In this document: in pieces, positions 1 through 26,082 of the stretch
Layout of the letters: every line of letters starts with the position of its first letter
Numbering within the stretch: position 1 is the first letter of the stretch
Source: a virus
Taxonomy: Duplodnaviria; Heunggongvirae; Uroviricota; Caudoviricetes
IMG/VR virus record: IMGVR_UViG_2537562195_000010
DNA: 53,150 nt
Strand: one strand, 5' to 3'
Made by a program: the position numbers and the translations under genes
The notes under the pieces: model-generated
The model's input: the letters and a program-made list of their open reading frames with translations, nothing else
What the model was told of the DNA's origin: nothing
Databases searched by the model: none

Positions 1-1131
1 TCAAATGACCAGTTTTTTCCACTCTTTACCGCGTACATCGTTGTAAATATCGGTCATTTTTTGATTCGAATGACCCAGCAAAATTTGGGTATCAATTCCC
101 TGCTCCCTGAACAATCGCTCTGATAAAGATCTCTGCTCATGGAAAGAGGGTGGAGTGCCATTAGCGCGCCAGTTGTAATCCACAGAATCCCGGGCTTTTT
201 TAAATGCAACTGTCAACGTTGCTGGCTTAACCATCCCGCCGCGCTTAGCTGTCCCTTTAGCATGATGGTGGTGCAATAACCACGGACTAAGAACGCAATC
301 GCGACAGGATGACACTACATCATCCAGGGTGAGATTTAATTTATCGCAACGCAGAGCCAGAGGGATGGCAATCCGGGTTCCTGTTTTTTGCTGTTCGACA
401 TGAAGATAACCATCCCTGATATCCGAAAATTTCATTTTGCAAATATCTGAAAGGCGCTGGCCTGTCATCAGCGCCAGCAGCATACCACGTTGTAAAAAGT
501 AACCATCCTTTTCCGCTGCATTATAAATCATCATCCACTCATCAAAGGTCAGTCGTTGCCGTGATATCCGTACCTGTGGTTTTTTTGCCGATTCTGCAGG
601 GTTAAAGCCTGGCGAGACATCGCCCGTTTGCTGGGCCTCCCGGAAAACATCAATCAGTACTTTCCTGAAAATTTGTCCCATTCTGTTATGTCCTTTTGCC
701 TTGTAATCTTCCAGCACCGATACCACATCTTTTACGGTTATGGCATCTAATGGTCTGGTACCAAAACGTTCATCAAATACCCTGAGAGGGGATGCTTTCT
801 GTTTCAGTGTGTTGAGTTTGATCTCTCCGTTTTCATATCTTTCCTGTTGAATTTTTCGGTAACTATTCAGAAAAACAGAAACGGTTGATGAACCACCGGT
901 ATCACGAATAATTTTCTCCTGCAGAGTGAGCATTTGTTCCATTTGTTGCCTGGCAAGACGGCTGTTCGCTTCTGCTGCAATAGCTTCTGCCTGTTTCTGG
1001 TCAATACTGCCGAGCCCGTGATTTTTTCCTGTTATGGGATGCCTGTAACGCCAGTAAACTTTGTTATTTCTTTTGTCAAAATACGGAGATAATCCCGGAA
1101 CTTCAGTTTTATATTTTCGTGGGCGCGCCAT
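1..1131 (-). CDS. int: Tyrosine-type site-specific integrase (phage integrase)
   Basis: 376 aa ORF; stop codon at window positions 1-3; C-terminal catalytic-domain motifs typical of lambda-family integrases (R...HxxR...Y region, 'LLGHSNQKMTDIY'); overlaps the excisionase start by 23 nt as in lambdoid int-xis operons. Confidence 0.9.
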   Translation of the reverse strand: MARPRKYKTEVPGLSPYFDKRNNKVYWRYRHPITGKNHGLGSIDQKQAEAIAAEANSRLARQQMEQMLTLQEKIIRDTGGSSTVSVFLNSYRKIQQERYENGEIKLNTLKQKASPLRVFDERFGTRPLDAITVKDVVSVLEDYKAKGHNRMGQIFRKVLIDVFREAQQTGDVSPGFNPAESAKKPQVRISRQRLTFDEWMMIYNAAEKDGYFLQRGMLLALMTGQRLSDICKMKFSDIRDGYLHVEQQKTGTRIAIPLALRCDKLNLTLDDVVSSCRDCVLSPWLLHHHHAKGTAKRGGMVKPATLTVAFKKARDSVDYNWRANGTPPSFHEQRSLSERLFREQGIDTQILLGHSNQKMTDIYNDVRGKEWKKLVI

Positions 1132-1357
1132 CTTCCAGTATCCTCTTCAAAGCAGGGTGATCTGTGGCGATCACTTCCGGCTTGTTTACCATTCCGACAA
1201 AGCGAGCTCGAGGATCCACTCGCCAGTGTCTTCCAACTTTTTTGGGGAGAGGAAATATCATTCCGGCTTTAGCGTATTTACTTAACGTGCCCGGAGTCGG
1301 GACCGGGTCACTGAATTCCTCTTTTGCCCACTCAGTGAGAAGAATAAGTCTTGCCAT
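1109..1357 (-). CDS. xis: Excisionase (Xis-like DNA-binding protein)
   Basis: 82 aa ORF immediately upstream of and overlapping int; small basic protein 'MARLILLTEWAKEEF...' of the prophage excisionase type. Confidence 0.75.
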   Translation of the reverse strand: MARLILLTEWAKEEFSDPVPTPGTLSKYAKAGMIFPLPKKVGRHWRVDPRARFVGMVNKPEVIATDHPALKRILEDGAPTKI

Positions 1358-1421
1358 GAGAGTTGTTCGCTAATCATGGTCGCCGCCACTATAGCTTGCG
1401 GGCGACGACCGGGGTTGAACA

Positions 1422-10435: not shown

Positions 10436-10762
10436 ATGAAAATAGAAAAAGCGAAAGTACAGCTCAGGATAATGCTTGCTGGTCCGGCTGCGAGTTATAT
10501 GACACATTCGCCAGCCATAAAAAAGGTCCTTGATGAACTGGAGGCCAAAGACAAGCGCATTGCAGAACTGGAGGCAAGGGAAGTCCAGTTACCGGTTGGT
10601 TATGAACTTCGCTATGGACACCCGATAAATGCTGATGAGCGCCATATTATGATACCTAAGGAAAATGGCAGCTGGCTTTATCTGGCTGACTTAGAACATG
10701 CACTACGTGTTGCTGGCATTCGCATCAAAGGAGAGCGATGTGGAAATAAAACCAGAAGATGA
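10436..10762 (+). CDS. Hypothetical protein
   Basis: 108 aa; ATG immediately follows the upstream stop (TAGATG). Confidence 0.5.
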   Translation: MKIEKAKVQLRIMLAGPAASYMTHSPAIKKVLDELEAKDKRIAELEAREVQLPVGYELRYGHPINADERHIMIPKENGSWLYLADLEHALRVAGIRIKGERCGNKTRR

Positions 10763-11096
10763 GTTAAGTAATATTGTTTTATTTCCGGTAAAAGAGGATG
10801 ACCCACGTAATCAGGTTAATTTTCTTTATGAGCCATCGGAAAGACCATACTGCCATCACGCCTCTGTCCGGGTTGACGAAAAAGAGCGTCAGGTCCGCTG
10901 TAAAATCTGCGGTTCAGTTGTGGAGCCGTTTGACTGGATGCTCTCTGTGGCGAAAAGAGAAACCAGACTGGCAGATGATGTAAAGCTATTGCGCCAGGAG
11001 GAACAGGAAAGGCGAAAAAATATAGAAAAGTTAATTCAGATTGAGCGTAACGCGAAAGCGCGGATACGCAGGGCGTCAAAATCCAGAACTGAATAA
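10740..11096 (+). CDS. Hypothetical protein with possible Cys4 zinc-ribbon
   Basis: GTG at 10740 with AGGAGA RBS; 'CHHASVRVDEKERQVRCKICGSVVEPFDW' has C..H...C..C spacing. Confidence 0.45.
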   Translation: MEIKPEDELSNIVLFPVKEDDPRNQVNFLYEPSERPYCHHASVRVDEKERQVRCKICGSVVEPFDWMLSVAKRETRLADDVKLLRQEEQERRKNIEKLIQIERNAKARIRRASKSRTE

Positions 11097-11191
11097 TTAA
11101 ATTCAGCACTGTTAAAAATTTAATCCTTAACCGGAGGGATTCCTGCACCCTCAGAACATAAGGAGACCGCCTGAAAGGGTGGTAATGAAAA

Positions 11192-11563
11192 ATGACTGAA
11201 TTAACCAAAGAGCAATTAATCAAGGAAGCCAAATTAAAAATAGCGGTTGCGAACTGTTACCCTAATTCAGAGATGGCCAGGGTAGAGGGAGAGCTATTCA
11301 AAATTGCACTGGCATCGCTGGAAGCAGAACCGATAGCGTGGGAATGCGGTGAAAACATAATCCTGTTTAACCCTGACACAGTTGAAGCATACGCAAAACG
11401 TGCGGAAATATCACCTAAACCACTATTCTCCGCGCCGCCAGCGCTGGTAGTGCCTGATAAGTTGCCGCGTGAATACAGAAACGGTTGGCCTCTTGCGTAT
11501 AGTGATTATGCTGAAGGCTGGAACGACTGCCGCGAAGCCATGCTTCAGGGAGATAAATCATGA
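11192..11563 (+). CDS. Hypothetical protein
   Basis: 123 aa ORF; ATGA overlap with the next gene. Confidence 0.5.
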   Translation: MTELTKEQLIKEAKLKIAVANCYPNSEMARVEGELFKIALASLEAEPIAWECGENIILFNPDTVEAYAKRAEISPKPLFSAPPALVVPDKLPREYRNGWPLAYSDYAEGWNDCREAMLQGDKS

Positions 11564-11913
11564 TTAATCGTATCAAGCTGGAGCACATCCTCGAATATGC
11601 CAGGCAGCAGAGGCATATTGGTCAGCATTGTAAAATTCCACCAGGAGATATGGTTGAAATCATGGAGATTGCCATGCGCAAGGCTGGCAATTCTCCGGTA
11701 ACTCCGGATGGTTGGATAAGCTGTAGTGAGCGAATGCCGCCAGTTGGTGTTGATGTACAACTGTTTGTGTCCTGCACGGGTGAACAGTTTACAGGTTTTA
11801 ACCTGGATAATACGGGTGACTTCCAGTATGCGCAGTGTTTCGGTGCGCCCATCGTGTGTGAAGCCACACACTGGATGCCGCTACCAGAACCGCCGAAGGA
11901 GGTGCGCCAATGA
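11560..11913 (+). CDS. DUF551 family phage protein
   Basis: C-terminal 'GWISCSERMPP...HWMPLPEPPKE' matches the DUF551 signature (W...E.LP ... WMPLPEPP). Confidence 0.6.
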   Translation: MINRIKLEHILEYARQQRHIGQHCKIPPGDMVEIMEIAMRKAGNSPVTPDGWISCSERMPPVGVDVQLFVSCTGEQFTGFNLDNTGDFQYAQCFGAPIVCEATHWMPLPEPPKEVRQ

Positions 11914-11993
11914 GCTGGCCTGAAGCCTTCTCAAATGTTGGTATTGCAATGGCGGTGGCGCTGGTTGTGTATTCGATTTGCCGCTGGGGATAA
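11910..11993 (+). CDS. Small hydrophobic peptide (27 aa), translationally coupled
   Basis: 'MSWPEAFSNVGIAMAVALVVYSICRWG'; ATG overlaps the DUF551 stop (ATGA); AAGGAGG 7 nt upstream; followed by a terminator. Below the 60-aa ORF-track threshold. Confidence 0.3.
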   Translation: MSWPEAFSNVGIAMAVALVVYSICRWG

Positions 11994-12006
11994 ATTGCTG
12001 AAAAAA

Positions 12007-12042
12007 GATCCCGACACACACATGAGTCGGGATCTTTGATTT
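12007..12042 (+). terminator. Rho-independent terminator
   Basis: Hairpin 'GATCCCGAC-(loop)-GTCGGGATC' followed by 'TTTGATTT'. Confidence 0.6.
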
Positions 12043-12117
12043 ATATATCCTACGAATCCGCCAGTAAGAGAGGGGGCGGACGGTTTATTCTAATACTGGA
12101 ATTATGTGGGGAAAAGT

Positions 12118-12417
12118 TTATAAGAAATCGGTTTCATAACTTTGTCCGCCATGATAAATACCTGCGATAAAGACTTTATTGCCATCAACGGCAAAAGCAA
12201 TAATCGTTCTGTGGCGGAAGTGAGTTACCCGCATTCCCTGTCGAATATCATCGCGTTTATTGCCCCGATGCGGGAATGTGGAAAACCCATCAAGATAATC
12301 AAGAAGTGCATTGGCATAATTGTCAGCAATGACGCTCCCTGCTTTCTCCGTTATATATCTGTGCAGGTTGATTATCTGCTGTTCGGCCTCAGGAGTAATG
12401 ATGACTTCATATGTCAT
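12118..12417 (-). CDS. ParE/RelE-superfamily toxin (type II TA toxin)
   Basis: 99 aa from 'MTYEVIITPEAEQQI...'; size, sequence character and position directly after a ParD-like gene fit ParE-family toxins. Confidence 0.7.
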   Translation of the reverse strand: MTYEVIITPEAEQQIINLHRYITEKAGSVIADNYANALLDYLDGFSTFPHRGNKRDDIRQGMRVTHFRHRTIIAFAVDGNKVFIAGIYHGGQSYETDFL

Positions 12418-14157: not shown

Positions 14158-14520
14158 ATGCTCATAGAGTTGGTTTTACCTTACCCGCCGACGGTGAACA
14201 CTTACTGGCGACGCCGTGGCAGCACATATTTTGTATCAAAAGCCGGGGAGCGTTATCGCCGGGCAGTGGCGCTTATTGTTCGCCAGCAGCGACTGAAATT
14301 AAGCCTGTCCGGACGGCTGGCAATAAAAATTATTGCAGAGCCACCGGATAAGCGCCGCCGTGACCTGGACAATATTCTGAAAGCACCGCTGGATGCGCTG
14401 ACGCACGCGGGGTTGTTAATGGACGATGAGCAGTTTGATGAAATCAATATTGTACGTGGCAAGCCAGTATCTGGTGGACGGCTGGAGATAAGAATTACAG
14501 AGGTGGGTGTGCATGAATAA
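14158..14520 (+). CDS. rusA: Crossover junction endodeoxyribonuclease RusA (Holliday junction resolvase)
   Basis: 120 aa; 'PDKRRRDLDNILKAPLDALTHAGLLMDDEQ...GGRLEIRITE' matches the RusA catalytic region. Confidence 0.9.
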   Translation: MLIELVLPYPPTVNTYWRRRGSTYFVSKAGERYRRAVALIVRQQRLKLSLSGRLAIKIIAEPPDKRRRDLDNILKAPLDALTHAGLLMDDEQFDEINIVRGKPVSGGRLEIRITEVGVHE

Positions 14521-15178
14521 CCAGTATTTACAGTTTGTTCGTGAGCAACTCATGATTGCCACTGCGGATCTTAGTGGGTCGACAAAAGGCCAGCTGGAAG
14601 TCTGGCAGGAAAATGCCCTGTTCGATACAGGGCGTTGCAGACGCAAAAAAATTCGTTACCGCGATGAGGTAACCGGAAAAATGATCACGCGGGATAATCC
14701 CCCGATCCCGGGTAAACAATCACTGGCGAAAGGCTCATCAATTGCCCTGGTCAGTCCGGTTGAGTTTTCGACATCATCATGGCGACGCGCCGTTCTGTCT
14801 CTTGAAGAACATCATAAAGCCTGGCTGCTGTGGTGTTACAGCGGTAGCATTTGCTGGGAGCATCAGATCGCGATAACGCAGTGGGCGTGGACTGAATTTA
14901 ATGCTCAATCCGGTACCAGAAAAATTGCAGGAAAAACTCTGGTGCGCCTGAAGACGTTGATCTGGTTGGCGGCGCAGGCGGTAAAAGCTGAGCTTTTTGG
15001 TGGGGAAGGTTACGAATACCAGGAACTGGCGTTACTGGTGGGAGTAACAACCAAAAACTGGTCCAAGACATTTACTGGTCACTGGGTTGCAATGAAACAC
15101 ATTTTTCATCGGCTGGATAGTGAAGCTTTATTGTTGGTGGAGGGAACACGTTCAAAACAAAAGGCGGCATTTTCATAG
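14513..15178 (+). CDS. Late-gene antitermination protein Q
   Basis: 221 aa; phage antiterminator Q family by sequence character and position (after rusA, before the late promoter/terminator); ATG 14513 with GAGGTG RBS, overlapping the rusA stop. Confidence 0.8.
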   Translation: MNNQYLQFVREQLMIATADLSGSTKGQLEVWQENALFDTGRCRRKKIRYRDEVTGKMITRDNPPIPGKQSLAKGSSIALVSPVEFSTSSWRRAVLSLEEHHKAWLLWCYSGSICWEHQIAITQWAWTEFNAQSGTRKIAGKTLVRLKTLIWLAAQAVKAELFGGEGYEYQELALLVGVTTKNWSKTFTGHWVAMKHIFHRLDSEALLLVEGTRSKQKAAFS

Positions 15179-15185
15179 CAAAGTA

Positions 15186-15214
15186 TTGCAAAAGTAGATA
15201 AAAAGGCATATATT
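15186..15214 (+). promoter_or_regulatory. Putative late promoter PR' (TTGCAA-17-TATATT)
   Basis: Seen directly: -35 TTGCAA (15186-15191), 17-bp spacer, -10 TATATT (15209-15214), directly downstream of Q. Confidence 0.5.
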
Positions 15215-15264
15215 TCGTGTAAATCTGATATTTTGCCGTTATTATACGTGATGGCAAAGCCACT

Positions 15265-15290
15265 AAAACCCGTGACCGAGCGGGTTTTTT
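15265..15290 (+). terminator. tR'-like rho-independent terminator
   Basis: Hairpin 'AAAACCCG-TGACCGAG-CGGGTTTT' followed by T-run, ~50 nt downstream of the putative PR'. Confidence 0.6.
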
Positions 15291-15431
15291 ACCCCCCAAA
15301 AAATGGCATAGACATTAAACGTGATGACGATTGTGCCAATACTTTCTCCATCAATGACGCCCCTTGACTGCATGGAATCCAATTTGTTATGTAATGTGTG
15401 TTGATATTTTTGAGTTGTTAATGGTGTTACT

Positions 15432-16145
15432 ATGGATGACAGTGCTCTGCTCAGAAACTCTTCACTTTTTGTTGCTTATATGGGCTGTCTCGGATGGGGG
15501 AGCGCTTATTTCTATGGATGGGGTACTTCATTTTACTATGGCTTTCCATGGTGGGTTGTCGGGGCTGGTGTCGATGATGTAGCACGAAGTTTGTTTTATG
15601 CTGTGACAGTTATTGTTATATTCCTTATTGGATGGGGAGTTGGTATTGTTTTCTTTTTGGGCATAAAACAAAAGCGCAATATACAAAATTTGAGTTTTAT
15701 CCGGCTTTTTCTCGCGATATTGCTGCTTTTTATTCCACCTGTTCTGGAGTTTTCTGTAATTCATCAGCATGTTGAGCCAGATGTACTGATTTTCTGTGTT
15801 CTTGCTGCCTTTGCAATCACGCTTTTTGTCAGGTCTGGAAGAAGACTTGTTTCAGTCAAATGTTTTTCGGAAATGTCTGTTATTCGCCATCACCGAATTG
15901 AGTTCATGATGGCTGGGTTTATGATTTATTTCTGGGCATTCTCTCTTATTGCCGGTTGGTACAAACCACAGTTTAAGAGGGAATATCAGACGGTCCACTA
16001 TGAGAATGTATGGTATTACATTATTGCGCGCTATGATGATCGTCTGGTGTTATCGAAATCATACAGGAGTGGGGGTAAGAAATTCGTTATATTTAATAGC
16101 GGAAATATTAATGATTTTGAAATTAATACTGTCAGAGTACGTTAA
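15432..16145 (+). CDS. Hypothetical multi-pass membrane protein (AT-rich moron)
   Basis: 237 aa; at least four hydrophobic helices (e.g. 'LFYAVTVIVIFLIGWGVGIVFFLGI') plus a C-terminal soluble ~70 aa; markedly AT-rich relative to flanking phage genes; no clear RBS. Confidence 0.5.
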   Translation: MDDSALLRNSSLFVAYMGCLGWGSAYFYGWGTSFYYGFPWWVVGAGVDDVARSLFYAVTVIVIFLIGWGVGIVFFLGIKQKRNIQNLSFIRLFLAILLLFIPPVLEFSVIHQHVEPDVLIFCVLAAFAITLFVRSGRRLVSVKCFSEMSVIRHHRIEFMMAGFMIYFWAFSLIAGWYKPQFKREYQTVHYENVWYYIIARYDDRLVLSKSYRSGGKKFVIFNSGNINDFEINTVRVR

Positions 16146-16318
16146 AATTTCCTGAGTAATAAAGATTTTACTGCCCGGCATTGAGCGGCTTTTTTATGCC
16201 AGAAAAATGGTGCAGTACATAAAATGTGCAGGTGGTTATTAATACCGGTCTTTCAGCTTGCTGGCTTTTTTGACAAGAGTTATTGGTGTGTCACGTTAAC
16301 CGGAAAAGGGAAAAAGAC

Positions 16319-16516
16319 ATGCTGAAACAGCAGGATATGACAGAAACCGCCAGAGCAGTTTTTAATGAATTAAGTGCCACCGAACCGGCGACAGTCGGGG
16401 AGATTGCACAGAATACGTACCTTTCACGCGAACGCTGCCAGCTAATACTGACCCAGCTTGTTATGGCGGGTCTGGCAGACTATCAGTTTGGTTGTTACAG
16501 ACGCCTTCAGTCCTGA
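16319..16516 (+). CDS. Small putative DNA-binding protein (HTH-like)
   Basis: 66 aa from 'MLKQQDMTETARAVFNELSATEPATVGEIAQNTYLSRERCQLILTQL'; ends inside a terminator hairpin. Confidence 0.45.
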   Translation: MLKQQDMTETARAVFNELSATEPATVGEIAQNTYLSRERCQLILTQLVMAGLADYQFGCYRRLQS

Positions 16517-16528
16517 AGGCTTTTTTAT
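16503..16528 (+). terminator. Rho-independent terminator
   Basis: 'GCCTTCAG-TC-CTGAAGGC' stem followed by TTTTTTATTT. Confidence 0.5.
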
Positions 16529-16667
16529 TTGTGGTAAATGGGCGGCTGGTGGGTGTTAGGGGCACTCACCAGCCATCTGCTCATGCGTTGGGGTCACAAG
16601 CAAACCTCAGGCCCATCTGCTTTGCGCAAAAGCGGTATGAGCCTATCAGAGACAGGCTTAATGATCC

Positions 16668-17726
16668 ATGTTTAATACTGTAAAAATATCCAGTTGTGAG
16701 TTAATCAACGCCGACTGCCTGGAATTTATCCGGTCGTTACCCGAAAATTCTGTTGACCTGATAGTCACGGACCCGCCGTACTTTAAAGTGAAGCCTGAGG
16801 GCTGGGATAACCAGTGGACGGGTGATGAGGATTACCTGAAATGGCTGGACCAGTGTCTGGCGCAGTTCTGGCGGGTGCTGAAACCTGCCGGAAGTCTTTA
16901 CCTGTTCCGTGGCCATCGCCTGGCGTCTGACATTGAAATCATGATGCGTGAACGCTTCAGTGTGCTGAACCATATTATCTGGGCGAAGCCGTCCGGACGC
17001 TGGAACGGGTGCAACAAGGAAAGCCTGAGGGCGTATTTCCCCGCCACAGAGCGCATTCTGTTCGCGGAACACTATCAGGGGCCGTATCGCCCGAAAGATG
17101 ATGGCTATGAGGCGAAGGGCAGGGCACTGAAACAGCATGTGATGGCTCCGCTGATTGCTTACTTTCGTGATGCGCGTGCTGCCCTGGGGATAACGGCAAA
17201 ACAGATAGTGGATGCCACAGGAAAGAAAAACATGGTGTCGCACTGGTTCAGTGCCAGTCAGTGGCAGCTACCGAACGAAAGCGATTATCTGAAATTACAG
17301 GCGCTGTTTGCCCGGGTGGCAGAAGAGAAGCATCAGCGGGGTGAACTGGAAAAGCCCCACCACCAGCTGCTGGAGACGTATACTTCACTGAACCGGCAGT
17401 ATGCGGAACTGCAGAGTGAATATAAGCATCTGCGGCGGTATTTTGGCGTGACGGCGCAGGTGCCGTACACGGATGTGTGGACGCATAAACCGGTGCAGTA
17501 CTATCCCGGGAAACATCCGTGCGAAAAACCGGCAGAAATGCTGCAGCAGATAATCAGTGCGAGCAGTCGTCCGGGTGACCTGGTTGCAGATTTCTTCATG
17601 GGGTCGGGTTCGACAGTCAAAGCCGCGATGGCGCTGGGGCGTCGTGCAACTGGCGTTGAGCTGGAGACTGAACGTTTTGAGCAGACGGTCAGGGAAGTAC
17701 AGGATTTAGTCAGTCAGAATGGATGA
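16668..17726 (+). CDS. DNA methyltransferase (beta-class N6-adenine/N4-cytosine, DPPY motif)
   Basis: 352 aa; motif IV 'DLIVTDPPY' near the N-terminus and motif I 'DFFMGSGST' near the C-terminus (beta-class order); no adjacent restriction endonuclease, so likely an orphan phage methylase. Confidence 0.85.
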   Translation: MFNTVKISSCELINADCLEFIRSLPENSVDLIVTDPPYFKVKPEGWDNQWTGDEDYLKWLDQCLAQFWRVLKPAGSLYLFRGHRLASDIEIMMRERFSVLNHIIWAKPSGRWNGCNKESLRAYFPATERILFAEHYQGPYRPKDDGYEAKGRALKQHVMAPLIAYFRDARAALGITAKQIVDATGKKNMVSHWFSASQWQLPNESDYLKLQALFARVAEEKHQRGELEKPHHQLLETYTSLNRQYAELQSEYKHLRRYFGVTAQVPYTDVWTHKPVQYYPGKHPCEKPAEMLQQIISASSRPGDLVADFFMGSGSTVKAAMALGRRATGVELETERFEQTVREVQDLVSQNG

Positions 17727-17766
17727 TATTGCAGGATTAGTTACGTACCGTTATTATCATGCGCCC

Positions 17767-17842
17767 GGCCCTTTAGCTCAGTGGTGAGAGCGAGCGACTC
17801 ATAATCGCCAGGTCGCTGGTTCAAATCCAGCAAGGGCCACCA
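17767..17842 (+). tRNA. tRNA with CAU anticodon (Met or lysidine-modified Ile2)
   Basis: Hand-folded cloverleaf: acceptor GGCCCTT/AAGGGCC, D-arm GCTC...GAGC, anticodon loop CTCATAA, T-arm GCTGG-TTCAAAT-CCAGC, encoded CCA. Confidence 0.85.
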
Positions 17843-17850
17843 TATCCATA

Positions 17851-17927
17851 CCGCCATTAGCTCATCGGGATAGAGCGCCAGCCTTCGAAGCTGGCTGCGC
17901 GGGGTTCGAGTCCTCGATGGCGGTCCA
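17851..17927 (+). tRNA. tRNA-Arg (anticodon UCG)
   Basis: Hand-folded cloverleaf: acceptor CCGCCAT/ATGGCGG, anticodon stem CCAGC/GCTGG with loop CTTCGAA, T-loop TTCGAGT, encoded CCA. Confidence 0.85.
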
Positions 17928-18205
17928 TTATCAGCATTATGCGTTGTTGGTTCTGATGAGTGAATCATTGTCTTTTGAGCAACAGGCTATCATATAAGAT
18001 AGCCTCAGACTTCCTTGTTTATTCTCGCCGGATGCTTCGTAGATATTTGCAGGCATCTGTATGCAGGGGTATTATTGCGGCATATATCATCCGGAAAAAT
18101 AAAAACTACATGCTGATCCGGAGATGATAGTTACAAGTCCTCCCGGATCCCGCATATTTACTATATTTTATAGATAATTGTTCTTGTTAATATGGAGATG
18201 GATAA

Positions 18206-18634
18206 ATGTATTGCCGTGCTGTACCGGTTCTTGTTTTGATATTAGCCAGTCTGACAACTGGCTGCACAAAAGATGTATCGACAAATAATTATGATGCTTC
18301 TCTGTATCACTCAGATAAATTAATAAAGTCACAAAATTTGAGCTCATCGGAACGTAGCCCTGATGCCAGTGAAGAAATCCGGCAGTATGCCATTCAGGTC
18401 AGGAAAGCCATAGAAGAACAGTTAAAGGATGCGAGTAAGTATTCAGGAAAAGAGTGTTCACTGAGAATGTATATGGCCCCGAATGGTCTTCTGCTACAGG
18501 TTAAAAGAGAAAGCGGTGATCCCGATTTATGTCGTGAAGCGATGAATGCAGTAAAGAATGCTGATATACCATCACCACCGTCTTCAGGAGTATATAAAGC
18601 ATTTAGAAATGGCGTGCTGGATTTTAAACTCTGA
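18206..18634 (+). CDS. Lipoprotein with TolA C-terminal (domain III)-like domain
   Basis: 142 aa; signal peptide with lipobox-like 'LTTGC'; C-terminal 'YAIQVRKAIEEQLKDASKYSGKECSLRMYMAPNGLLLQVKRESGDPDLCREAMNAVKNADIPSPPSSGVYKAFRNGVLDFKL' closely parallels the E. coli TolA C-terminus as I recall it (...GDPALC...KIPKPPSQAVYEVFKNAPLDFKP); AT-rich moron. Confidence 0.7.
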   Translation: MYCRAVPVLVLILASLTTGCTKDVSTNNYDASLYHSDKLIKSQNLSSSERSPDASEEIRQYAIQVRKAIEEQLKDASKYSGKECSLRMYMAPNGLLLQVKRESGDPDLCREAMNAVKNADIPSPPSSGVYKAFRNGVLDFKL

Positions 18635-18700
18635 CAGGGGGGAGAAGATTTTCTCCTGTCCTGATGATTTTGGGGCGCTGGAAAGATATTGTGCTGTGAA

Positions 18701-18950
18701 GTGTTAAATCCCTCACAATTCAGTAAGTTGACAGTTGCCTGTCAGACTGAGCATTTGTTAAAAAAATTTCGCATGGTGAATCCCCCTGTGCGGAGGGGCG
18801 ACTGGTGAACGGTATGATCTCTTTGATGATCGTAAGCGAGAATACGCGGGTTTGGTGTCACCGGGCTGAACTCACCGGGAGGCACCCGGCACCATGCTCA
18901 TGGTGATACAGAAATGCGGCTTCAGCCCCTCTCCGGAGGGGCTTTCTTAT
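18701..18950 (+). repeat. Structured repeat unit A (family of five; possible sRNA gene or promoter-terminator cassette)
   Basis: Contains the conserved blocks 'GTTAAATCCCTCACA', 'TTGTTAAAAAAA', hairpin 'GGTGAATCCCCCTGTGCGGAGGGGC', hairpin 'CACCGGGAGGCACCCGGCACC' and terminator 'GCCCCTC-TCCG-GAGGGGC-TTTCTT' (18925-18948). Confidence 0.7.
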
Positions 18951-19110
18951 GGACAAAAAAAGCCCGCGCTGGGAGACGCGGGCGGCAAGGAATAAACAAT
19001 AAAACGTGAAGTAATACTTCAACTGGCGAATAATACCCGACAGTAATCACTCTGCGCAATAGCGTGGCCTTTTTCGAATTGCGGGCTGTAGTCTCCCTTC
19101 TGCTGGGTGT

Positions 19111-19266
19111 CCTGGTTGCAGATTTCTTCATGGGGTAGGGTTCGGCAGTTAAAGCAGCGATGGCGCTGGGGCGTCGTGCAACTGGCGTTGAGCTGGATAC
19201 CGGGCGTTTTGAACAGACTGCGCAGGAAATCAGGGATGTATTTAGCGGGAGCGGTTTGCAGAAGTA
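19111..19266 (+). pseudogene. Remnant of a DNA methyltransferase 3' end (duplicate of the C-terminus of the 16668..17726 gene)
   Basis: Near-identical to 17578-17726 ('CCTGGTTGCAGATTTCTTCATGGGG...GGCGTCGTGCAACTGGCGTTGAGCTGGA...') but with an in-frame TAG ('FFMG*') and no upstream gene body. Confidence 0.6.
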
Positions 19267-19330
19267 ATCTCCCAAAATGCCATTTTTGGAATATACTGGT
19301 ATTAAGTCTTTTTGCTAAGGTTAATTCAAA

Positions 19331-20056
19331 ATGGATGTTGCCTGCTCTGTGGTCCTGATTCGCTATCCGATAGATATTTTTCTTGAAAAAGAAAAAGTTT
19401 CACTCGATGCCGGAAGTGTTATGCTTGTTGCCAGAAATATAAGAGGGCTTTTCTGTGCTTATGCCGACAGAGTGAAAATGGCAGATATAAGTAACAGCGT
19501 CGTCAATCAGTATCTGGAAAGGGAGTGTGAACTGACGGAGTATACACCGACAAAAATTCCTCTTTATTTGATGTCTGATATTTACAATACGGAACTGGCG
19601 GAGGCTTTAATAACCCAGCATAGTGAATCCAGTGATACTTTGAAGGATTTCTCTGTTATAACCGCATTTTCATGTATCTCCTTATTTGCAACAGACAGAC
19701 GTCTGCCATTATTTTTGTCCGGTGCTGTAAATAATATCAGCTGTAAAGTAAGGGCTATAATTCAGACCGACATATCGGCAGGCTGGATGCTTGGTGTGAT
19801 TGCATTACAATTGCATATGAGCGAAAGCTTGTTGAAGCGAAAACTTAAGGATGAAGGTTATAGCTTTAGTCGGTTGTTGCTGGAGGAGCGAATGCGTGTT
19901 GCTGTTAATCTTGTATGTTTCCAGCGAGAGTGTGGACAAGCGATAGCGGAAAAATGTGGTTACTCAAGTAAGTCCTACTTCATTTCTGTATTTCACCAGT
20001 ATTATGGTGCACCACCTGAGAGCTATGCATATTTGCAGAAAGCAGACGTTATCTGA
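19331..20056 (+). CDS. AraC/XylS-family transcriptional regulator (prophage-encoded)
   Basis: 241 aa; C-terminal double-HTH region '...LHMSESLLKRKLKDEGYSFSRLLLEERMRVAVNLV...IAEKCGYSSKSYFISVFHQYYGAPP' typical of AraC-type regulators; AT-rich island. Confidence 0.75.
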   Translation: MDVACSVVLIRYPIDIFLEKEKVSLDAGSVMLVARNIRGLFCAYADRVKMADISNSVVNQYLERECELTEYTPTKIPLYLMSDIYNTELAEALITQHSESSDTLKDFSVITAFSCISLFATDRRLPLFLSGAVNNISCKVRAIIQTDISAGWMLGVIALQLHMSESLLKRKLKDEGYSFSRLLLEERMRVAVNLVCFQRECGQAIAEKCGYSSKSYFISVFHQYYGAPPESYAYLQKADVI

Positions 20057-20144
20057 TGTTTTTCATCAGGCATATATTGATTGACTGTATTAGATATAGT
20101 CTGAATGTGTTCAGCATAAAAAGTTATAATCATTTGGTGTTTGC

Positions 20145-20423
20145 GTGAATATTGATGAGAAAATCAGATGTAGCCAACTGTTACAGCGTATTGAAGCCGT
20201 CAATGTGGAACGAACAAAGGTCTTCAGTCGTCTGACAGTTTTATTTTGTACCCCTGATCGACGTTCAGGTCAGGAGATGGTTCTTCTGGATGTAGATGCA
20301 CTTCGGAACGTCTGTGAGGAGTTCACCGCGGCTAATTCGGAGTTACTGAGTCTTGTTCAGGAGTACAACAGAATTGCAGGTAGTAACGGTTTTGATGAAA
20401 TCAAAATTATATCCCGTGGATAA
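20145..20423 (+). CDS. Hypothetical protein downstream of the AraC-family regulator
   Basis: 92 aa ORF with GTG start; AT-rich; no family recognised. Confidence 0.4.
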   Translation: MNIDEKIRCSQLLQRIEAVNVERTKVFSRLTVLFCTPDRRSGQEMVLLDVDALRNVCEEFTAANSELLSLVQEYNRIAGSNGFDEIKIISRG

Positions 20424-20671
20424 AACATATCCTGTATATTTATGTTGTTACATACAGGCGCTTTTAGTATCTGCCGCACGGCAGTTGTACTTCAGAATAA
20501 GATGCTTTTGTGACTGGTGGTGTTGTATCTGGGGTTAGCCAGGAGGCAGGTTCAGAGAGTCCGGTGGTAATTATGTGTATGCAGTGGTTGTTGCTGTACC
20601 GTGGGCAAGTTCTGGAACTGGCTTCGTCCATTGTAGATGATTGTTAGCTGGATATCAGTTACCTCATGGAA

Positions 20672-20907
20672 ATGTTAAATGACTCACAATTCGGTTGATG
20701 GGCTATTGTCTGATCGATGGAAGTCTTGTAAAAACGAGCCAGCATAGTGAATCCCCCTGTGCGGAGGGGCGTCTGACATGGTCTCCATAGCGATGGTCAC
20801 AATACGCAGATTCAGTAGTCAGGCTGAATCTACCGGGAGGCACCCGGCACTATGCTGCTTATGGTGTATACATAGCGATCGGCCCCTCTCCGGAGGGGCT
20901 TTTTTTG
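20672..20907 (+). repeat. Structured repeat unit B
   Basis: Same conserved blocks as unit A ('GTTAAATGACTCACA', 'AGTGAATCCCCCTGTGCGGAGGGGC', 'TACCGGGAGGCACCCGGCAC', terminator 'GGCCCCTCTCCGGAGGGGCTTTTTTT'). Confidence 0.7.
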
Positions 20908-20929
20908 TGCGGGAAAAGGCTGTGTTGTT

Positions 20930-21175
20930 AAGTGTTAAATTCCTCACAGTTCAGATGGTTGATGCTTGCCTGTCTGAGGGGGAGTTGTTAAAAAAGTTCT
21001 GCATGGTGAATCCCCCTGTGCGGAGGGGCGACTGGTATGATTTGCATCTTTTCTGTTGTAGGCAATGCAAACGCGGGTTCAGGGACACCAGACTGGACTC
21101 ACCGGGAGGCACCCGGCACCATGTTCATGATGATACAGATACGCAGTGTCAGCCCCTCTCCTGAGGGGCTTTTTT
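20930..21175 (+). repeat. Structured repeat unit C
   Basis: Same conserved blocks; terminator 'AGCCCCTCTCCTGAGGGGCTTTTTT' at 21151-21175; variable central segment. Confidence 0.7.
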
Positions 21176-21202
21176 ATGCAGGAAAAACGCTGTGTTGTGA
21201 AA

Positions 21203-21436
21203 TGTTAAATTCCTCACAGTTCAGATGGTTGATGCTTGCCTGTCTTACGGGGAGTTGTTAAAAAAGTTCTGCATGGTGAATCCCCCTGAGCGGAGGGGCA
21301 TATCAGCGCAGGTGTTTCTACTCTATCCTTTCTGTGCGGGTTCAGGTGCTGATACTGAACTCACCGGGAGGCACCCGGCATCATGCATATGGTTAACAGA
21401 CAAGTAGCGAAGCCCCTCTCCGGAGGGGCTTTTTTA
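21203..21436 (+). repeat. Structured repeat unit D
   Basis: Same conserved blocks; terminator at 21411-21436. Confidence 0.7.
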
Positions 21437-21462
21437 TGCAGGGAAAAGGCTGTGTTGTGAAA

Positions 21463-21690
21463 TGTTAAATTCCTCACAATTCATGAGGTTGATGATTGTC
21501 TGATTGATGAGGAGTTTGTTAAAAAAAACGGGCATGGTGAATCCCCCTGTGCGGAGGGGTGATATCGTATCATTTCCTGTGTGGCCGACTGATATCACGG
21601 ACATTTGTTCACCGGGAGGCACCCGGCACCATGCAGTATACAGAGATTAGGCATACATCCAGGCTCCTCATCGCAGGAGCCTTTTTACAT
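21463..21690 (+). repeat. Structured repeat unit E
   Basis: Same conserved 5' blocks; central segment forms its own inverted repeat ('GTGATATCG...CGACTGATATCAC'); different terminator hairpin 'GGCTCCT-CATCGC-AGGAGCC-TTTTTA'. Confidence 0.65.
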
Positions 21691-21918
21691 GTAAAAAAAA
21701 CCGCTCCTGGGAAGAGCGGTTGGCAAGGAAGCAAGGAATAAATAACAAAACGTGAAGTAATTTATTCAGCACCCTAATAATACCTTAGAGTAATCACCTT
21801 GCGCAACTGTAAGGGCGTATTTCTTTTTTGCGGGCTGTTTTTCTGTGTGACTTTTGTGTTTCCGGAGGTCAGCCCGTGCCTTCTCTGACTCAGAACATTA
21901 TCCCGGCCGGGAGGATTC

Positions 21919-23883
21919 ATGGCATTTAAACACTACGATGTGGTCAGGGCGGCATCGCCGTCAGACCTTGCTGAACGACTGACACAAAAACTGAAGGAGG
22001 GCTGGCAGCCATTTGGCAGTCCGGTGGCCATCACGCCTTATACCCTGATGCAGGCCATTGCGGCGGAAGGTGATGTCACCACACCAGTGGCGGTGACCGG
22101 TAATGAGGGTAAGGCGGTGGCTGTCAGTGCCACCAGCGACCCGGAGTATTACTTTGTTGTGGTTCTGGCAGGGCAGTCAAATGGCATGTCGTATGGTGAA
22201 GGTCTTCCGCTGCCGGAGACATATGACCGTCCGGAGCCGCGCATTAAGCAGCTGGCGCGCCGCAGTACGGTGACACCGGGCGGTGCAGCATGCAAATATA
22301 ACGACATCATTCCGGCGGACCATTGTCTGCATGATGTGCAGGACATGAGCCGCCTTAACCATCCGAAAGCGGACCTGTCAAAGGGGCAGTACGGAACCGT
22401 GGGGCAGGGGCTGCATATTGCCAAAAAATTGCTGCCGTTTATACCGGCGAATGCGGGCATTCTGCTGGTTCCGTGCTGTCGTGGTGGTTCAGCGTTCACC
22501 ACCGGAGCTGATGGCACATACAGTGACGCGAGTGGTGCCTCGGAGAATTCAACCCGCTGGGGTGTTGACAAGCCGCTGTACAAGGACCTTATCGGTCGAA
22601 CAAAAGCAGCACTGAAGAAGAACCCGAAAAATGTGCTGTTTGCCGTGGTGTGGATGCAGGGGGAATTTGATTTTGGCGGTACGCCGGTAAATCACGCAGC
22701 ACAGTTTGGTGCGCTGGTTGATAAATTCCGTGCAGACCTGACGGATATGGCCGGTCAGTGCGTTGGTGGCTCTGCTGGCGGTGTTCCCTGGATATGTGGA
22801 GATACGACGTATTTCTGGAAGCAGAAGAACGAATCCACGTACCAGACGGTGTACGGCAGCTATAAAAACAAAACGGAAAAGAATATCCATTTCGTACCGT
22901 TCATGACGGATGAGAACGGGGTGAATGTGCCGACGAACAAACCGGAAGAAGACCCGGACATTCCGGGTATCGGGTATTACGGTTCGAAATGGCGTGACAG
23001 CTCAGCCACCTGGACGTCACAGGACAGGGCGAGCCATTTCAGCACCTGGGCACGCCGGGGGATTATTTCCGACCGTCTGGCAACGGCGATTCTGGTGCAC
23101 GCCGGGAGAACCGCTGAATTCATTACCGGAAAACAGCCTGATATGGTGAGGCCCACCGTACCTTCCGGTGAAGGTCCGGAGAGAGAGGCGGAAGCCCCGG
23201 CCAGTAAGCGTACCCTGATGAGTCTGCTGGCATCCGGCGAAGACCTGGCATCACAGGGCTGGCGCTATTATCACAAACCGGCGGGCGGAGACAGTGTTAA
23301 CAAAAACATTGCTGAAGCGGTGGTCAGTGATGCGGGGGCTACGGGAGGTAAGGCTCTGCAACTGAACAAACCGGAAAACCACATCTGGTTTCTGGAGCAT
23401 GATGCAGCCGGACAGGGGGCGGAGTTACTGAAGAAGGGCGGACGTGTGAGCGTACGGTTTAAGTTGCCGGGTTCACTGGTGCCGAATCAGTTTGCCCTGG
23501 GCATTTACTGGCAGTTGTCGTCCCTGCCGGAGGGGGTGACGCTGTCAGGAGAAGGTAACGATATGCTGATGTCCTTCTTTCTGCAGACGGATACGACGAA
23601 CCTGAACGCGATGCATCACAGGAAGCCGAATGCGAAGCTGGATACATTCGGGGTCTTTGATAACGGATGGCACACGCTGGCTTTTGAGTTTGCCGGAAAC
23701 AACAGCATTCAGGTGACACCAGTACTGGATGAGAAACGGGGAGCGGCGTTCACACTGGTGAAGTCACCGGCATCGGGGGTGGCGGACAAACTGCAACTGA
23801 CCGATATATCAAAATCGGCGACGTATACGCTGCTGATTGACAGCATTGCGGTGGAAGTGAACAGCACAGACACTGCGGCATGA
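21919..23883 (+). CDS. nanS: NanS-p-like sialate O-acetylesterase (DUF1737 N-terminus plus SASA/DUF303 esterase domain)
   Basis: 654 aa; N-terminal 'MAFKHYDVVRAASPSDLAERLTQKLKEGW' and esterase region 'VVVLAGQSNGMSYGEG...AVVWMQGEFD' match the NanS-p family encoded downstream of stx in Shiga-toxin phages. Confidence 0.8.
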   Translation: MAFKHYDVVRAASPSDLAERLTQKLKEGWQPFGSPVAITPYTLMQAIAAEGDVTTPVAVTGNEGKAVAVSATSDPEYYFVVVLAGQSNGMSYGEGLPLPETYDRPEPRIKQLARRSTVTPGGAACKYNDIIPADHCLHDVQDMSRLNHPKADLSKGQYGTVGQGLHIAKKLLPFIPANAGILLVPCCRGGSAFTTGADGTYSDASGASENSTRWGVDKPLYKDLIGRTKAALKKNPKNVLFAVVWMQGEFDFGGTPVNHAAQFGALVDKFRADLTDMAGQCVGGSAGGVPWICGDTTYFWKQKNESTYQTVYGSYKNKTEKNIHFVPFMTDENGVNVPTNKPEEDPDIPGIGYYGSKWRDSSATWTSQDRASHFSTWARRGIISDRLATAILVHAGRTAEFITGKQPDMVRPTVPSGEGPEREAEAPASKRTLMSLLASGEDLASQGWRYYHKPAGGDSVNKNIAEAVVSDAGATGGKALQLNKPENHIWFLEHDAAGQGAELLKKGGRVSVRFKLPGSLVPNQFALGIYWQLSSLPEGVTLSGEGNDMLMSFFLQTDTTNLNAMHHRKPNAKLDTFGVFDNGWHTLAFEFAGNNSIQVTPVLDEKRGAAFTLVKSPASGVADKLQLTDISKSATYTLLIDSIAVEVNSTDTAA

Positions 23884-24779: not shown

Positions 24780-25571
24780 ATGAATAAACAATACGAACTG
24801 GTTGTTAAAGGGATAAATATTTACCCGGATAAGATTACTGTTACTGTGGCGCTGGAAACTGGTGGGTATACGTCACTGTTGTTGCCAAATGTGGTGATTG
24901 ATCTTGATCGTGTTGAAGGTGCCCCGCTGGAGTTTTACGAAGCTGAGGCGAAAAAGAAGGCGAAGCAGTTTTTCATGGATATTGCTGCCGGGTTATGTGA
25001 AGGGAACGAACCGTTGCCGGAAAAGCGCCTCTGTTCAGAAGAGCGGTATACCATACAAATTAACAATGCATATAACACGATACAGTCAGAAAAAGATGAT
25101 ATCGAATCACGCATTGAAAAACTGGAGAACAGCGTCGTTGAACTGAATAAAAAACTGTCGGTGCAGATCCCTTCCGAAGGTGAAAAAAAACGCCGTGATG
25201 AGCAGTTCGCGGCGTTTTACGATTATTGCCGGAAAGTGATGAGCAGAAATCTCGCAGAGTGTTTCCGTATTCAAAAAAACAGAGAGCGCTCTGCAAATAG
25301 TGAGATTCTGGATAATTTTTTAAAGGGGACGCATCTCGCCAGTGATTGTTTCATTGCTCATTCTTTTGGTGGCTTTCATGAGGCCATCAAACATGATGTT
25401 GAGAGAAGTCCAGGTATCCTCTGTTCCATTCCCGTAAGCATCGAAATAGACACAAATACGATAACCGGTGAACTCGTTACCGCCGGAGTCGGTATATTCC
25501 GTCATGAGGGGAACGATGCCAAAGGTTCCTTTACAAAAATCGGGCCGTTCTTTCTGAAGGTAGAGCGATAG
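24780..25571 (+). CDS. Hypothetical protein inserted between holin and endolysin (coiled-coil centre)
   Basis: 263 aa ORF starting 3 nt after the pinholin stop with a GGGGAGAG RBS; central predicted coiled coil; last ~250 nt overlap a convergent minus-strand ORF in the complementary register, so the true 3' end is uncertain. Confidence 0.45.
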   Translation: MNKQYELVVKGINIYPDKITVTVALETGGYTSLLLPNVVIDLDRVEGAPLEFYEAEAKKKAKQFFMDIAAGLCEGNEPLPEKRLCSEERYTIQINNAYNTIQSEKDDIESRIEKLENSVVELNKKLSVQIPSEGEKKRRDEQFAAFYDYCRKVMSRNLAECFRIQKNRERSANSEILDNFLKGTHLASDCFIAHSFGGFHEAIKHDVERSPGILCSIPVSIEIDTNTITGELVTAGVGIFRHEGNDAKGSFTKIGPFFLKVER

Positions 25572-25952
25572 TTTGTTAAGTACCCATCCGACAGCTCGCT
25601 CATTTTGGTTTATTTTCGTATCGCGAAACAAAAATTCGAAGCGGCCAGATGACGCATGGGTGCAACCAAATACCGGGGCGTATTCATCAACCTTTGGTGT
25701 TCCTGAAAACATGCAGTCCGTGCTCTCGAATGCAGATGAATTGCTGTTGATCCACTTAACAAAAGAAAAAAAGGTCTGAATCGCTTGTCTGTCTGAATAT
25801 TCAACAAAATCCTCAAGGTGTGTCTCGATCAGTTCCGGGTGTTTACGAAAGTCATAATATTGACCGGGACGATATTTATGAGTGGTTGTTTTATCCCATG
25901 GTTGTGCTCTGCGTCCCTGTAAACGGAGGTCTGCCGCTGGATAGATAAGCAT
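25320..25952 (-). CDS. Hypothetical protein, antisense to late transcription
   Basis: 211 aa from 'MLIYPAADLRL...'; AGGAGA RBS 6 nt upstream of the ATG on the minus strand; E. coli-like codon choice; no family recognised. Confidence 0.5.
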   Translation of the reverse strand: MLIYPAADLRLQGRRAQPWDKTTTHKYRPGQYYDFRKHPELIETHLEDFVEYSDRQAIQTFFSFVKWINSNSSAFESTDCMFSGTPKVDEYAPVFGCTHASSGRFEFLFRDTKINQNERAVGWVLNKLSLYLQKERPDFCKGTFGIVPLMTEYTDSGGNEFTGYRICVYFDAYGNGTEDTWTSLNIMFDGLMKATKRMSNETITGEMRPL

Positions 25953-26082
25953 AAGTAATCTCCTGGTGGAATGTAATCCACGATCATCCGGGGAAATTAA
26001 GAACCCGCCAGTGCCCACCACTGGTGGGGTGAAGGCTTAACATATCCAGGGATTCGGAACCGATAAATCCTGATAAATATCC

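Follow-up and report, generated by a model that had tools for sequence, protein, structure and literature searches.

The DNA considered here, positions 15179-23883 of a 53,150-nucleotide (nt) stretch catalogued as a tailed virus (Caudoviricetes; IMG/VR record IMGVR_UViG_2537562195_000010; hereafter the window), is the late region of an Escherichia coli lambdoid prophage. With a probability of about 80%, this prophage is a non-Shiga-toxin (non-Stx) element residing beside ompW, whose late operon opens with a leader controlled by an antiterminator Q and whose accessory slot, located between two tRNA genes and the sialate esterase gene nanS-p, is a hybrid generated by one crossover between two kinds of late region, referred to below as types A and B. 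From 14507 to 23883, the order is Q, a PR′-like promoter, a tR′ hairpin, a DPPY DNA methyltransferase, tRNA-Ile(CAU), tRNA-Arg(UCG), the variable slot and nanS-p, and all annotated cargo open reading frames (ORFs) lie on the + strand, co-oriented with PR′. An earlier reading of the same sequence (the original prediction) had listed Q, PR′, tR′, the methyltransferase, the tRNAs and nanS-p in this order, and all of these elements were recovered where it had placed them. A late operon devoid of stx and endowed with some uncharacterised cargo is an arrangement of a known kind; what is new in this locus is the specific cargo set, its exact recombinant origin, the size of an array of small RNA (sRNA) genes of the STnc100 family and an undescribed family of lipoproteins carrying a TolA domain.

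Probable recombinant origin of the accessory slot

The slot extends from 17928 to 21918 and comprises two modules that meet at 19103/19105. Module A, which ends at 19103, contains the gene of a lipoprotein with TolA domain III and one STnc100 copy, and is closed by a remnant of the leader that precedes nanS-p (18955-19103, + strand). This remnant aligns with 21693-21840 in long identical runs, with a 31-nt core that is 94% identical, and includes a minus-strand terminator at 18983-18962. Module B begins at 19105 with the remnant of a methylase gene, followed by an AraC-family regulator, a 92-amino-acid (aa) protein and four STnc100 copies. The methylase remnant (19105-19267, + strand) is a pseudogene that preserves the 3′-terminal 53 codons of a second, B-type methylase, interrupted by an internal stop; it is 84% identical to 17573-17713, and its translation corresponds to the C-terminus of the intact methylase of the goat strain SMBL.

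Each module is also found alone. In the locus of the uropathogenic E. coli (UPEC) strain EC2 (L010), which carries module A only, the methylase, tRNA-Ile, tRNA-Arg, the TolA-like gene, STnc100 and nanS-p succeed one another with nothing further in the slot, and identity to the window reaches 94.2% between 16185 and exactly 19103. Module B stands alone in strain SMBL (L012), where an intact methylase is directly followed by the genes of the AraC regulator and the 92-aa protein, then by two STnc100 copies and a 654-aa nanS-p, without tRNAs and without stx, and where identity to the window reaches 97.9% from exactly 19105. The SMBL backbone resembles that of an Stx2a phage, being 94% identical to the phage Stx2a_WGPS2 in the Q region, 96.8% in the methylase and 97.9% in the 5′ part of nanS-p. 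Therefore, because both stx-less parents exist and homology switches from one to the other at 19103/19105, one illegitimate crossover explains the whole slot. In this scheme, a type A phage would have provided the left part, with the methylase, tRNA-Ile, tRNA-Arg, the TolA-III lipoprotein, STnc100 and the pre-nanS leader, a type B phage would have provided the right part, with the methylase 3′ end, a Psr-like AraC gene, the 92-aa protein, the STnc100 array and nanS-p, and a single illegitimate crossover at 19103/19105 would have joined the two stx-less late regions.

Absence of stx and relationship with Stx-converting phages

It had been claimed that no stxA or stxB gene is present, and this was borne out by a tblastn search of the whole window with Stx2A and Stx2B, whose best E value was 0.17; likewise, none of the slot ORFs matched the RIP or SLT_beta Pfam families. 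Since stxAB, the defining feature of an Stx phage, was looked for and not encountered, the window is not one. A megablast search against phage records returned 376 matches, mostly to Stx-converting phages, none with a query coverage above 48%, given that the slot differs. In relation to the O157 phage Stx2a_WGPS2 (NC_049941), identity is 95.0% over the segment 16183-17948, which contains a small winged-helix ORF, the methylase and both tRNAs, and 98.0% over the 5′ 1.2 kb of nanS-p (21919-23094), with the left breakpoint just past argN, at ~17935, and the right one at the nanS-p ATG.

Late regions of the Stx2a_WGPS2 and 933W (NC_000924) type share with the window the order Q, PR′, tR′, small winged-helix ORF, DPPY methylase, ileZ, argN, slot, STnc100, nanS-p, DUF1378, DUF826, holin and lysozyme. 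On the other hand, the window lacks stxAB and argO, presents a Q of the Q82 family and an extra PF27470 gene after tR′, has five STnc100 copies instead of one, and fills the slot with the TolA-III lipoprotein, the AraC regulator and the 92-aa protein. The synteny with Stx-phage late regions that had been proposed thus holds for gene order and for the flanking DNA, but not for the Q/PR′/tR′ unit, which is of the phage-82/PPompW type described below, Stx-phage DNA homology starting only at ~16183, downstream of that unit. Of the references suggested for comparison, 933W has no methylase between Q and the tRNAs, unlike the window.

The same slot, which in many non-Stx prophages runs from the methylase 3′ end or the tRNAs to the nanS-p ATG, holds other cargo in prophages that share this architecture, namely those of O157:H7 (TerB, DUF3927), enteropathogenic E. 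coli (EPEC) E2348/69 (a homologue of the 92-aa protein, DUF3927, IraM), UPEC and a Rac-like element, and the slot of the Stx2k phage has other cargo too. Consequently, an stx-less version is expected rather than surprising. The position of stx does contain exactly the items listed in the original prediction, that is, the TolA-like lipoprotein, the methylase fragment, the AraC regulator, the 92-aa ORF and five repeats. Nevertheless, the wording that stx "is replaced" could not be sustained, since no direction is shown, the slot is common to non-Stx prophages, and one crossover between two stx-less parents explains the content.

A history in which stxAB and argO were recently lost in place from a genuine Stx-converting phage, which acquired the present cargo, corresponds to the literal sense of the original prediction and is considered improbable. 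The 95-98% identity of the flanks to Stx2a_WGPS2 would fit it, as would the Stx2a-phage-like Q, methylase and nanS backbone (94-98%) of the B-only SMBL locus, the missing argO, with a short stretch past argN that aligns weakly with the start of that gene, and the STEC (Stx-producing E. coli) label of many carriers. However, no stx remnant was detected below E 0.17 in the window, flank identity does not exceed 98%, the Q/PR′/tR′ unit is of a type present in no Stx phage record of the collection other than composites that include a PPompW prophage, many non-Stx prophages fill the same slot with other genes, and the two existing stx-less parents fully account for the content.

A phage 82-type antiterminator, late promoter and leader

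The antiterminator gene Q (14507-15178, + strand) ends just upstream of the start of the region delimited by the original prediction and is part of the same unit. Its product matches PF06323 (E 2.5e-89), which corresponds to the Q82 family (PMC9388147), and shares 77% aa identity with Q of phage 82 (record X92588) and 91% with Q of the PPompW prophages. No solved structure of a homologue of this Q was found, which is expected for the Q82 family. The PR′-like late promoter TTGCAA-17-TATATT (15186-15214, + strand), identified by a consensus scan, begins 8 nt past the Q stop codon and is followed by a late leader RNA (15221-15294, + strand) in which a first hairpin (15231-15259) precedes a tR′-like intrinsic terminator (~15265-15288) with its U6 tract. 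The fold of this leader of ~80 nt, with two hairpins, has a minimum free energy of -24.1 kcal/mol (z = -4.45 versus shuffled sequences). A PF06323 Q, a promoter directly downstream and an intrinsic terminator, three components of a Q82-type unit, are present.

The closest setting of this unit is that of the PPompW prophages, non-Stx lambdoid elements located at the ompW site in STEC O121 (e.g., LC567822), with which the window shares both the ompW-adjacent integration and the succession of Q, PR′, leader and tR′. Over 14507-15290, from Q to the terminator, the DNA is 87% identical to these prophages, and the homology ends at the terminator, at 15290. Compared with the O121 prophage, the loops have diverged, and conservation extends to the -35 and -10 elements, the initial transcribed sequence and the two stems. 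A TGATATTTT motif lies ~8-16 nt past the presumed transcription start, where it may be linked to Q82-type pausing or Q binding. This type of Q occurs in no Stx phage record of the collection, except for composite records that also hold a PPompW prophage. Therefore, judged from sequence, the Q/PR′/tR′ unit is of the phage-82 type, which sets its Q apart from that of the Stx phage records examined. Downstream of it, the two kinds of prophage diverge: the O121 PPompW element has three tRNAs and an insertion sequence (IS) after Q, and its annotation from Q to the terminase genes includes neither a methylase nor nanS nor any lysis gene, whereas the window has a full Stx-phage-like late region.

STnc100 small RNA copies

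The five structured repeats belong to the Rfam family STnc100 (RF02076), with scores of 119.5-172.4 bits against a gathering score of 47, and all of them span model positions 1-206. Copy 1, of the STnc100/EcOnc27 family (18742-18954, + strand; 172.4 bits), has an intrinsic terminator at 18924-18943. The other four units constitute a tandem array on the + strand (20713-20908, 20972-21181, 21243-21439 and 21503-21692; 119-141 bits) with a period of 260-270 nt, formed by repeat families D1, D2 and D4, in which each unit is provided with its own terminator. In an alignment of 10 sequences, compensatory changes affect 10 of the 33 consensus pairs and the central segment is variable, and this variation suggests that the units carry diversified target-pairing regions. 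The number of units also differs between otherwise near-identical loci (20640-21760 compared with L012, L004 and L011), with two in SMBL, three in strain 05-3629 and four in both the window and E. coli RM10410. Arrays covering at least 80% of that of the window are confined to 83 genomes.

The original prediction had counted the repeats among the cargo standing in place of stx. Five repeats are indeed present and structured, but they do not replace stx, because the same sRNA family sits downstream of stx2B. In Stx2a_WGPS2, one STnc100 copy lies 75 nt past stxB, and one copy is likewise found in the slot of the O157, EPEC, Stx2k and UPEC loci. In Stx2 phages, STnc100 occupies the same place, just upstream of nanS-p, and there is usually one copy per slot among the loci examined, as opposed to one plus an array of four here. 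The Stx2-phage copy overlaps, and has been equated with, the Hfq-binding sRNA EcOnc27/sRNA103, encoded downstream of stx2B and recovered bound to Hfq in O157 (PMC12711010), and the family is related to PasD (Zhu et al. bioRxiv 2026). By analogy with that copy (EcOnc27), the only one for which an Hfq-bound transcript is known, the copies of the window are probably Hfq-dependent sRNAs.

Within the 40 nt or so that lead up to the Rfam start, a motif TGTTAAAT(N)CCTCACAATTCAG...GTTGA precedes all five copies (~18700-18740 for copy 1) as well as those of other loci, in a weaker form in the O157 and Rac-like ones. It may reflect an RNA start upstream of the Rfam boundary or a promoter or processing signal shared by the copies. 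A search for a sigma-70 promoter before each unit revealed the conserved TGTTAAAT...CACAATTCAG and no convincing pair of -35 and -10 elements with legal spacing.

Two paralogous minus-strand elements, at 18955-19020 and 21693-21765, converge on STnc100 copies 1 and 5, respectively; they share the 31-nt core mentioned above, and a strong intrinsic terminator closes both of them (18983-18962 and 21721-21699). Their identification as AsxR or AgvB was rejected, as neither had an Rfam match at E <= 1 in the window nor aligned with the AsxR of the UPEC locus, which Rfam places on the minus strand at the equivalent site (L010 6028-6080). They are candidates for an undescribed antisense RNA or anti-sRNA.

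A prophage lipoprotein with TolA domain III

The first gene of the slot (18206-18634, + strand) encodes a 142-aa lipoprotein composed of a signal peptide with a lipobox (LTTGC), a linker of ~30 aa and a copy of TolA domain III (PF06519, 3.9e-23). Over its C-terminal 88 aa, it shares 51% identity with E. coli TolA domain III (PDB 1S62/3QDP), and both cysteines are kept; in the family to which it belongs, the G-C-T lipobox and the two cysteines are conserved among members with as little as 57% identity. Domain III and its cysteines are thus shared with TolA of the Tol-Pal system (PDB 1S62, 3QDP, 1TOL). TolA itself, however, has an inner-membrane anchor (domain I) and a long helical domain II, both of which are absent from the 142-aa protein, where a lipoprotein signal and a short linker are found instead. 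In fact, when compared with the full-length TolA model of 387 positions, residues 50-142 match positions 294-386 only. Since domains I and II are missing, the lipoprotein is not TolA, and the label "tolA: cell envelope integrity protein TolA" that PGAP/RefSeq assigns to WP_228400206.1 and its relatives in hundreds of genomes is a misleading over-annotation, given that only domain III matches.

Homologues occur in ~895 of 5426 complete E. coli genomes, and in all four loci inspected the gene belongs to a prophage late region. The Rac-like prophage (L003) carries two TolA-like genes in tandem, one of them partial, between a Q-like gene and the holin. A literature search retrieved no paper describing a prophage TolA-like lipoprotein, and this widespread family is therefore undescribed in the literature searched.

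The threonine at position +2 indicates that the lipoprotein would be destined for the outer membrane. A tentative suggestion, against which the odds lie, is that it is tethered to the inner face of that membrane and acts as a decoy for TolA ligands, rendering the lysogen tolerant to colicins or to Tol-dependent phages, or altering outer-membrane vesiculation. The ligands captured could be group A colicins, through their translocation domains, filamentous-phage g3p and perhaps the TolB N-terminus. Levengood-Freyermuth et al., 1993, are said to have rendered E. coli colicin-tolerant and leaky by overproducing periplasmic TolA domain III, and it is this precedent that makes the decoy idea testable, although not proven.

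The AraC-family regulator and the 92-aa protein

Module B encodes a 241-aa AraC-family regulator similar to YdeO and GadX (19331-20056, + strand), with matches to PF12833 (HTH_18), PF00165 (HTH_AraC) and phrog_1450 (4e-92). It shares 59% aa identity with an AraC protein of O157:H7 prophages that is present twice per genome. The prophage regulators PsrA, PsrB and PatE control gadE and hdeA, act in lysogens and confer phenotypes in uninduced cultures (PMC10877973). Like these proteins of enterohaemorrhagic E. coli O157:H7, the regulator of the window is an AraC protein of ~240 aa encoded in the late region of a lambdoid prophage, although it has diverged in sequence. By analogy, it probably feeds into the acid-resistance regulons of the host, as those three proteins do.

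The position of the gene also varies. In O157:H7 (L007) and in phiSTEC1575-Stx2k (L005), the AraC gene occupies the methylase position, upstream of the tRNAs, whereas in the window it lies inside the slot, after the methylase remnant. In phiSTEC1575-Stx2k, a Psr-like AraC gene is found directly upstream of stx2k, which indicates that such a regulator and stx can share one late leader. The AraC module was found in 89 genomes, and among those listed the methylase remnant accompanies it in all but SMBL.

The next gene (20145-20423, + strand; phrog_2873, 1e-46) encodes the 92-aa cytoplasmic protein, for which AlphaFold2 (AF2) predicts a helical hairpin of two long helices with a mean confidence score (pLDDT) of 82. 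An intact homologue, 60% identical, follows the tRNAs in EPEC E2348/69. A fold search for the 92-aa protein gave no significant match (best PDB E 0.44), and because the fold is a generic helical hairpin, no function can be assigned to the protein from it. A resemblance to the anti-activator TraM was too weak, and this candidate was dropped.

Transcription of the cargo

Seven intrinsic terminators are found on the + strand between PR′ and nanS-p, corresponding to tR′, one after the winged-helix ORF (16503-16520) and one for each STnc100 copy, and terminator-like sites are enriched in the region (20 versus 8.3 +/- 2.7 expected). Upstream of the TolA-like gene, which has a good ribosome-binding site, the consensus scan detected a promoter-like site, TTTGCA-18-TATTAT (18046-18075, + strand), which alone is not significant. 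In Stx phages, the toxin genes stx form part of the late region, beyond Q, and are controlled by PR′ (PMC6266700); by analogy, Q-dependent expression of the cargo of the window is plausible.

A stricter version of this idea, in line with the "unexpressed-until-induced" functions of the original prediction, states that no slot gene is expressed in the lysogen and that all of them, like stx2, depend exclusively on late transcription governed by Q. It would agree with the location of all the cargo downstream of tR′ and in the orientation of PR′, with the PR′ control of stx at the same position, and with the occurrence of promoter-like sites at chance frequency. Nonetheless, it appears unlikely, considering that each module has its own terminator, that a promoter-like site and a good ribosome-binding site precede the TolA-like gene, that PsrA, PsrB and PatE show their phenotypes in uninduced cultures, that STnc100/EcOnc27 is an Hfq-bound sRNA in O157, and that a regulator, a lipoprotein and sRNAs are better suited to lysogenic conversion than to the last minutes before lysis. 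Thus, the seven terminators, the promoter-like site and the activity of PsrA, PsrB and PatE in lysogens make expression of the cargo in the lysogen as well the more likely situation.

According to this reading of expression in both states, transcripts started at PR′ would end at tR′ in the lysogen, and the cargo would be read from weak promoters of its own, with the STnc100 terminators at the module ends insulating the modules from one another. Upon induction, the Q82-type antiterminator would load at PR′ and take the polymerase through all seven + strand terminators, and this read-through would boost all of the co-oriented cargo before transcription arrives at nanS-p and the lysis genes.

Genes between tR′ and the slot, and nanS-p

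Directly after tR′ lies an extra moron (15432-16145, + strand; GC 0.395) that encodes a 237-aa membrane protein of PF27470/phrog_1521 (2e-85). All of its homologues carry PF27470, and some are found in Citrobacter, Salmonella, Klebsiella and Yersinia. The protein has a conserved N-terminus rich in glycine and aromatic residues, three to four transmembrane helices and a small C-terminal beta domain, and its AF2 model, built with 25 homologues, reached a pLDDT of only 60. No DNA match to 15432-16145 was found in Stx2a_WGPS2, and no such gene is annotated in PPompW_132418.

The small winged-helix ORF (16283-16516, + strand; phrog_331, 1e-37), annotated in relatives as 16319-16516 (65 aa), gives weak TrmB/HTH_24 matches and is also present upstream of the methylase in Stx2a phages. 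The DPPY N6/N4 DNA methyltransferase (16668-17726, + strand) matches PF01555 (1.4e-42) and PADLOC MTase_II (3.6e-161), contains its motif in LIVTDPPYF and is 97.2% identical in aa sequence to the Stx2a_WGPS2 methylase. No cognate endonuclease is annotated beside it, and in a PADLOC scan of the cargo for defence systems the methylase was the sole match.

The two tRNA genes were recognised by ARAGORN and Rfam. The first, tRNA(CAU) of the ileZ type (17767-17842, + strand), is called Met by ARAGORN and tRNA-Ile by PGAP and is identical to the Stx2a_WGPS2 copy; the second is tRNA-Arg(UCG) of the argN type (17851-17927, + strand). The third tRNA of Stx phages, argO, is absent from the window, and a degraded argO after argN was rejected as a candidate, given that the weak alignment concerns the argO start only and has no Rfam match. 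At the other end of the slot, the pre-nanS leader (21693-21918, + strand), which holds the minus-strand terminator at 21721-21699, is followed by the gene of a 654-aa sialate O-acetylesterase of the NanS-p type (21919-23883, + strand), with DUF1737, SASA and DUF6645 domains and located upstream of the holin. Its aa identity is 95.4% to the SMBL protein, 80.6% to that of Stx2a_WGPS2 and 74.6% to that of 933W.

Genomic setting, spread and integrity

The segment 15179-23883 is 99.9% identical to chromosomal DNA of several E. coli strains, which include "strain 4" (ground beef), O91 RM7190 and O104:H21 94-3024, and 71 of the 5426 complete genomes of this species contain at least 80% of it; many of the carriers bear the STEC label. 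The annotated copy of the prophage is immediately adjacent to ompW and comprises an integrase, an excisionase, a CI/Cro-like pair, replication genes, RusA, Q, a lysis cassette, terminase, and head and tail genes.

The slot could also be non-functional recombination scrap within a decaying cryptic prophage. Some features would be in keeping with this, namely the methylase pseudogene with its internal stop, the duplicated leader fragment, the IS421, ISVsa5 and IS2 elements of relatives, the existence of frameshifted TolA-like variants and the annotation of the DUF1327 gene of the lysis cassette as partial. Such an explanation is nevertheless very improbable, since the ORFs for the AraC regulator, the TolA-like lipoprotein and the 92-aa protein are all intact, ~80 genomes share the AraC module at 99-100% identity and ~120 share the TolA-like segment at 95% or more, the lipobox and disulfide cysteines are kept in a family that diverges to 57% identity, the STnc100 structure is maintained by compensatory changes, and the integrase, Q, lysis, head and tail genes are retained.

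Several observations weigh against parts of the proposed reading, that is, a one-crossover hybrid slot in a Q-controlled prophage at ompW. The direction of the crossover was deduced from present-day sequences, and a B segment may instead have entered an A phage through two exchanges. Promoter-like consensus matches are not enriched in the region (11 versus 13.2 expected); the PR′ call is made because of the position of the site after the Q stop codon and its conservation in the PPompW prophages, not because of the consensus match, and the cargo promoters are weak consensus matches only. The AraC regulator matches the YdeO model NF007407 over its full length (1.4e-34) with 119.8 bits against a cutoff of 348, and reaches 92.7 bits against a cutoff of 500 with the GadX equivalog; it is a relative, not an equivalog, of YdeO/GadX. 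Furthermore, the AraC pair of O157:H7 prophages fits the description of PsrA and PsrB (PMC10877973) and may correspond to them, although the names it bears in its source are generic. Finally, relatives with IS insertions in the region testify to some decay: in RM10410 (L011), which has the same composite locus, IS421 lies inside the resident methylase and ISVsa5, with RNA-OUT, right after the AraC gene, and one further relative (H47/H48) has IS2, so that the region is an IS target in some lineages.

Two other parts of the prophage deserve mention. Upstream of the DUF968/RusA/Q block, at ~10500-12400 (positions derived from L001 as annotated, with an offset of -822), are hokD/sok, a split RelE/ParE toxin with an HTH antitoxin and an ORF6N-domain gene, all typical accessory genes of the nin region. 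In the holin-lysozyme interval, the DUF1327 gene corresponds to a 263-aa ORF (24780-25571) whose C-terminal two-thirds are without a Pfam match and which RefSeq annotates as a truncated pseudogene; in a low-GC stretch, it is overlapped by a 233-aa minus-strand ORF (25320-26021), also without a Pfam match. The segment 24780-26021 looks like another moron inserted within the lysis cassette.

Implications

The current understanding of Stx phages is unchanged by these findings. The locus nonetheless represents a clean, datable example of the reshuffling of the slot between Q and nanS-p, in which both parents and the exact junction can be identified. Given that the Stx2a-phage-like parent has an AraC gene where the tRNAs and stx2 would be, stx and the other accessory genes are interchangeable alleles of one slot, and these alleles circulate among strains, many of which are labelled STEC. 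From a practical point of view, an uncharacterised Psr-like regulator is present in strains that include serogroups O91, O104:H21 and O22:H8. Additionally, the array is a copy-number-variable form of the sRNA family found downstream of stx2, a family for which an association between sequence variants and clinical outcome has been reported in O157, and the TolA-domain lipoprotein may alter the sensitivity of its carriers to colicins or phages.

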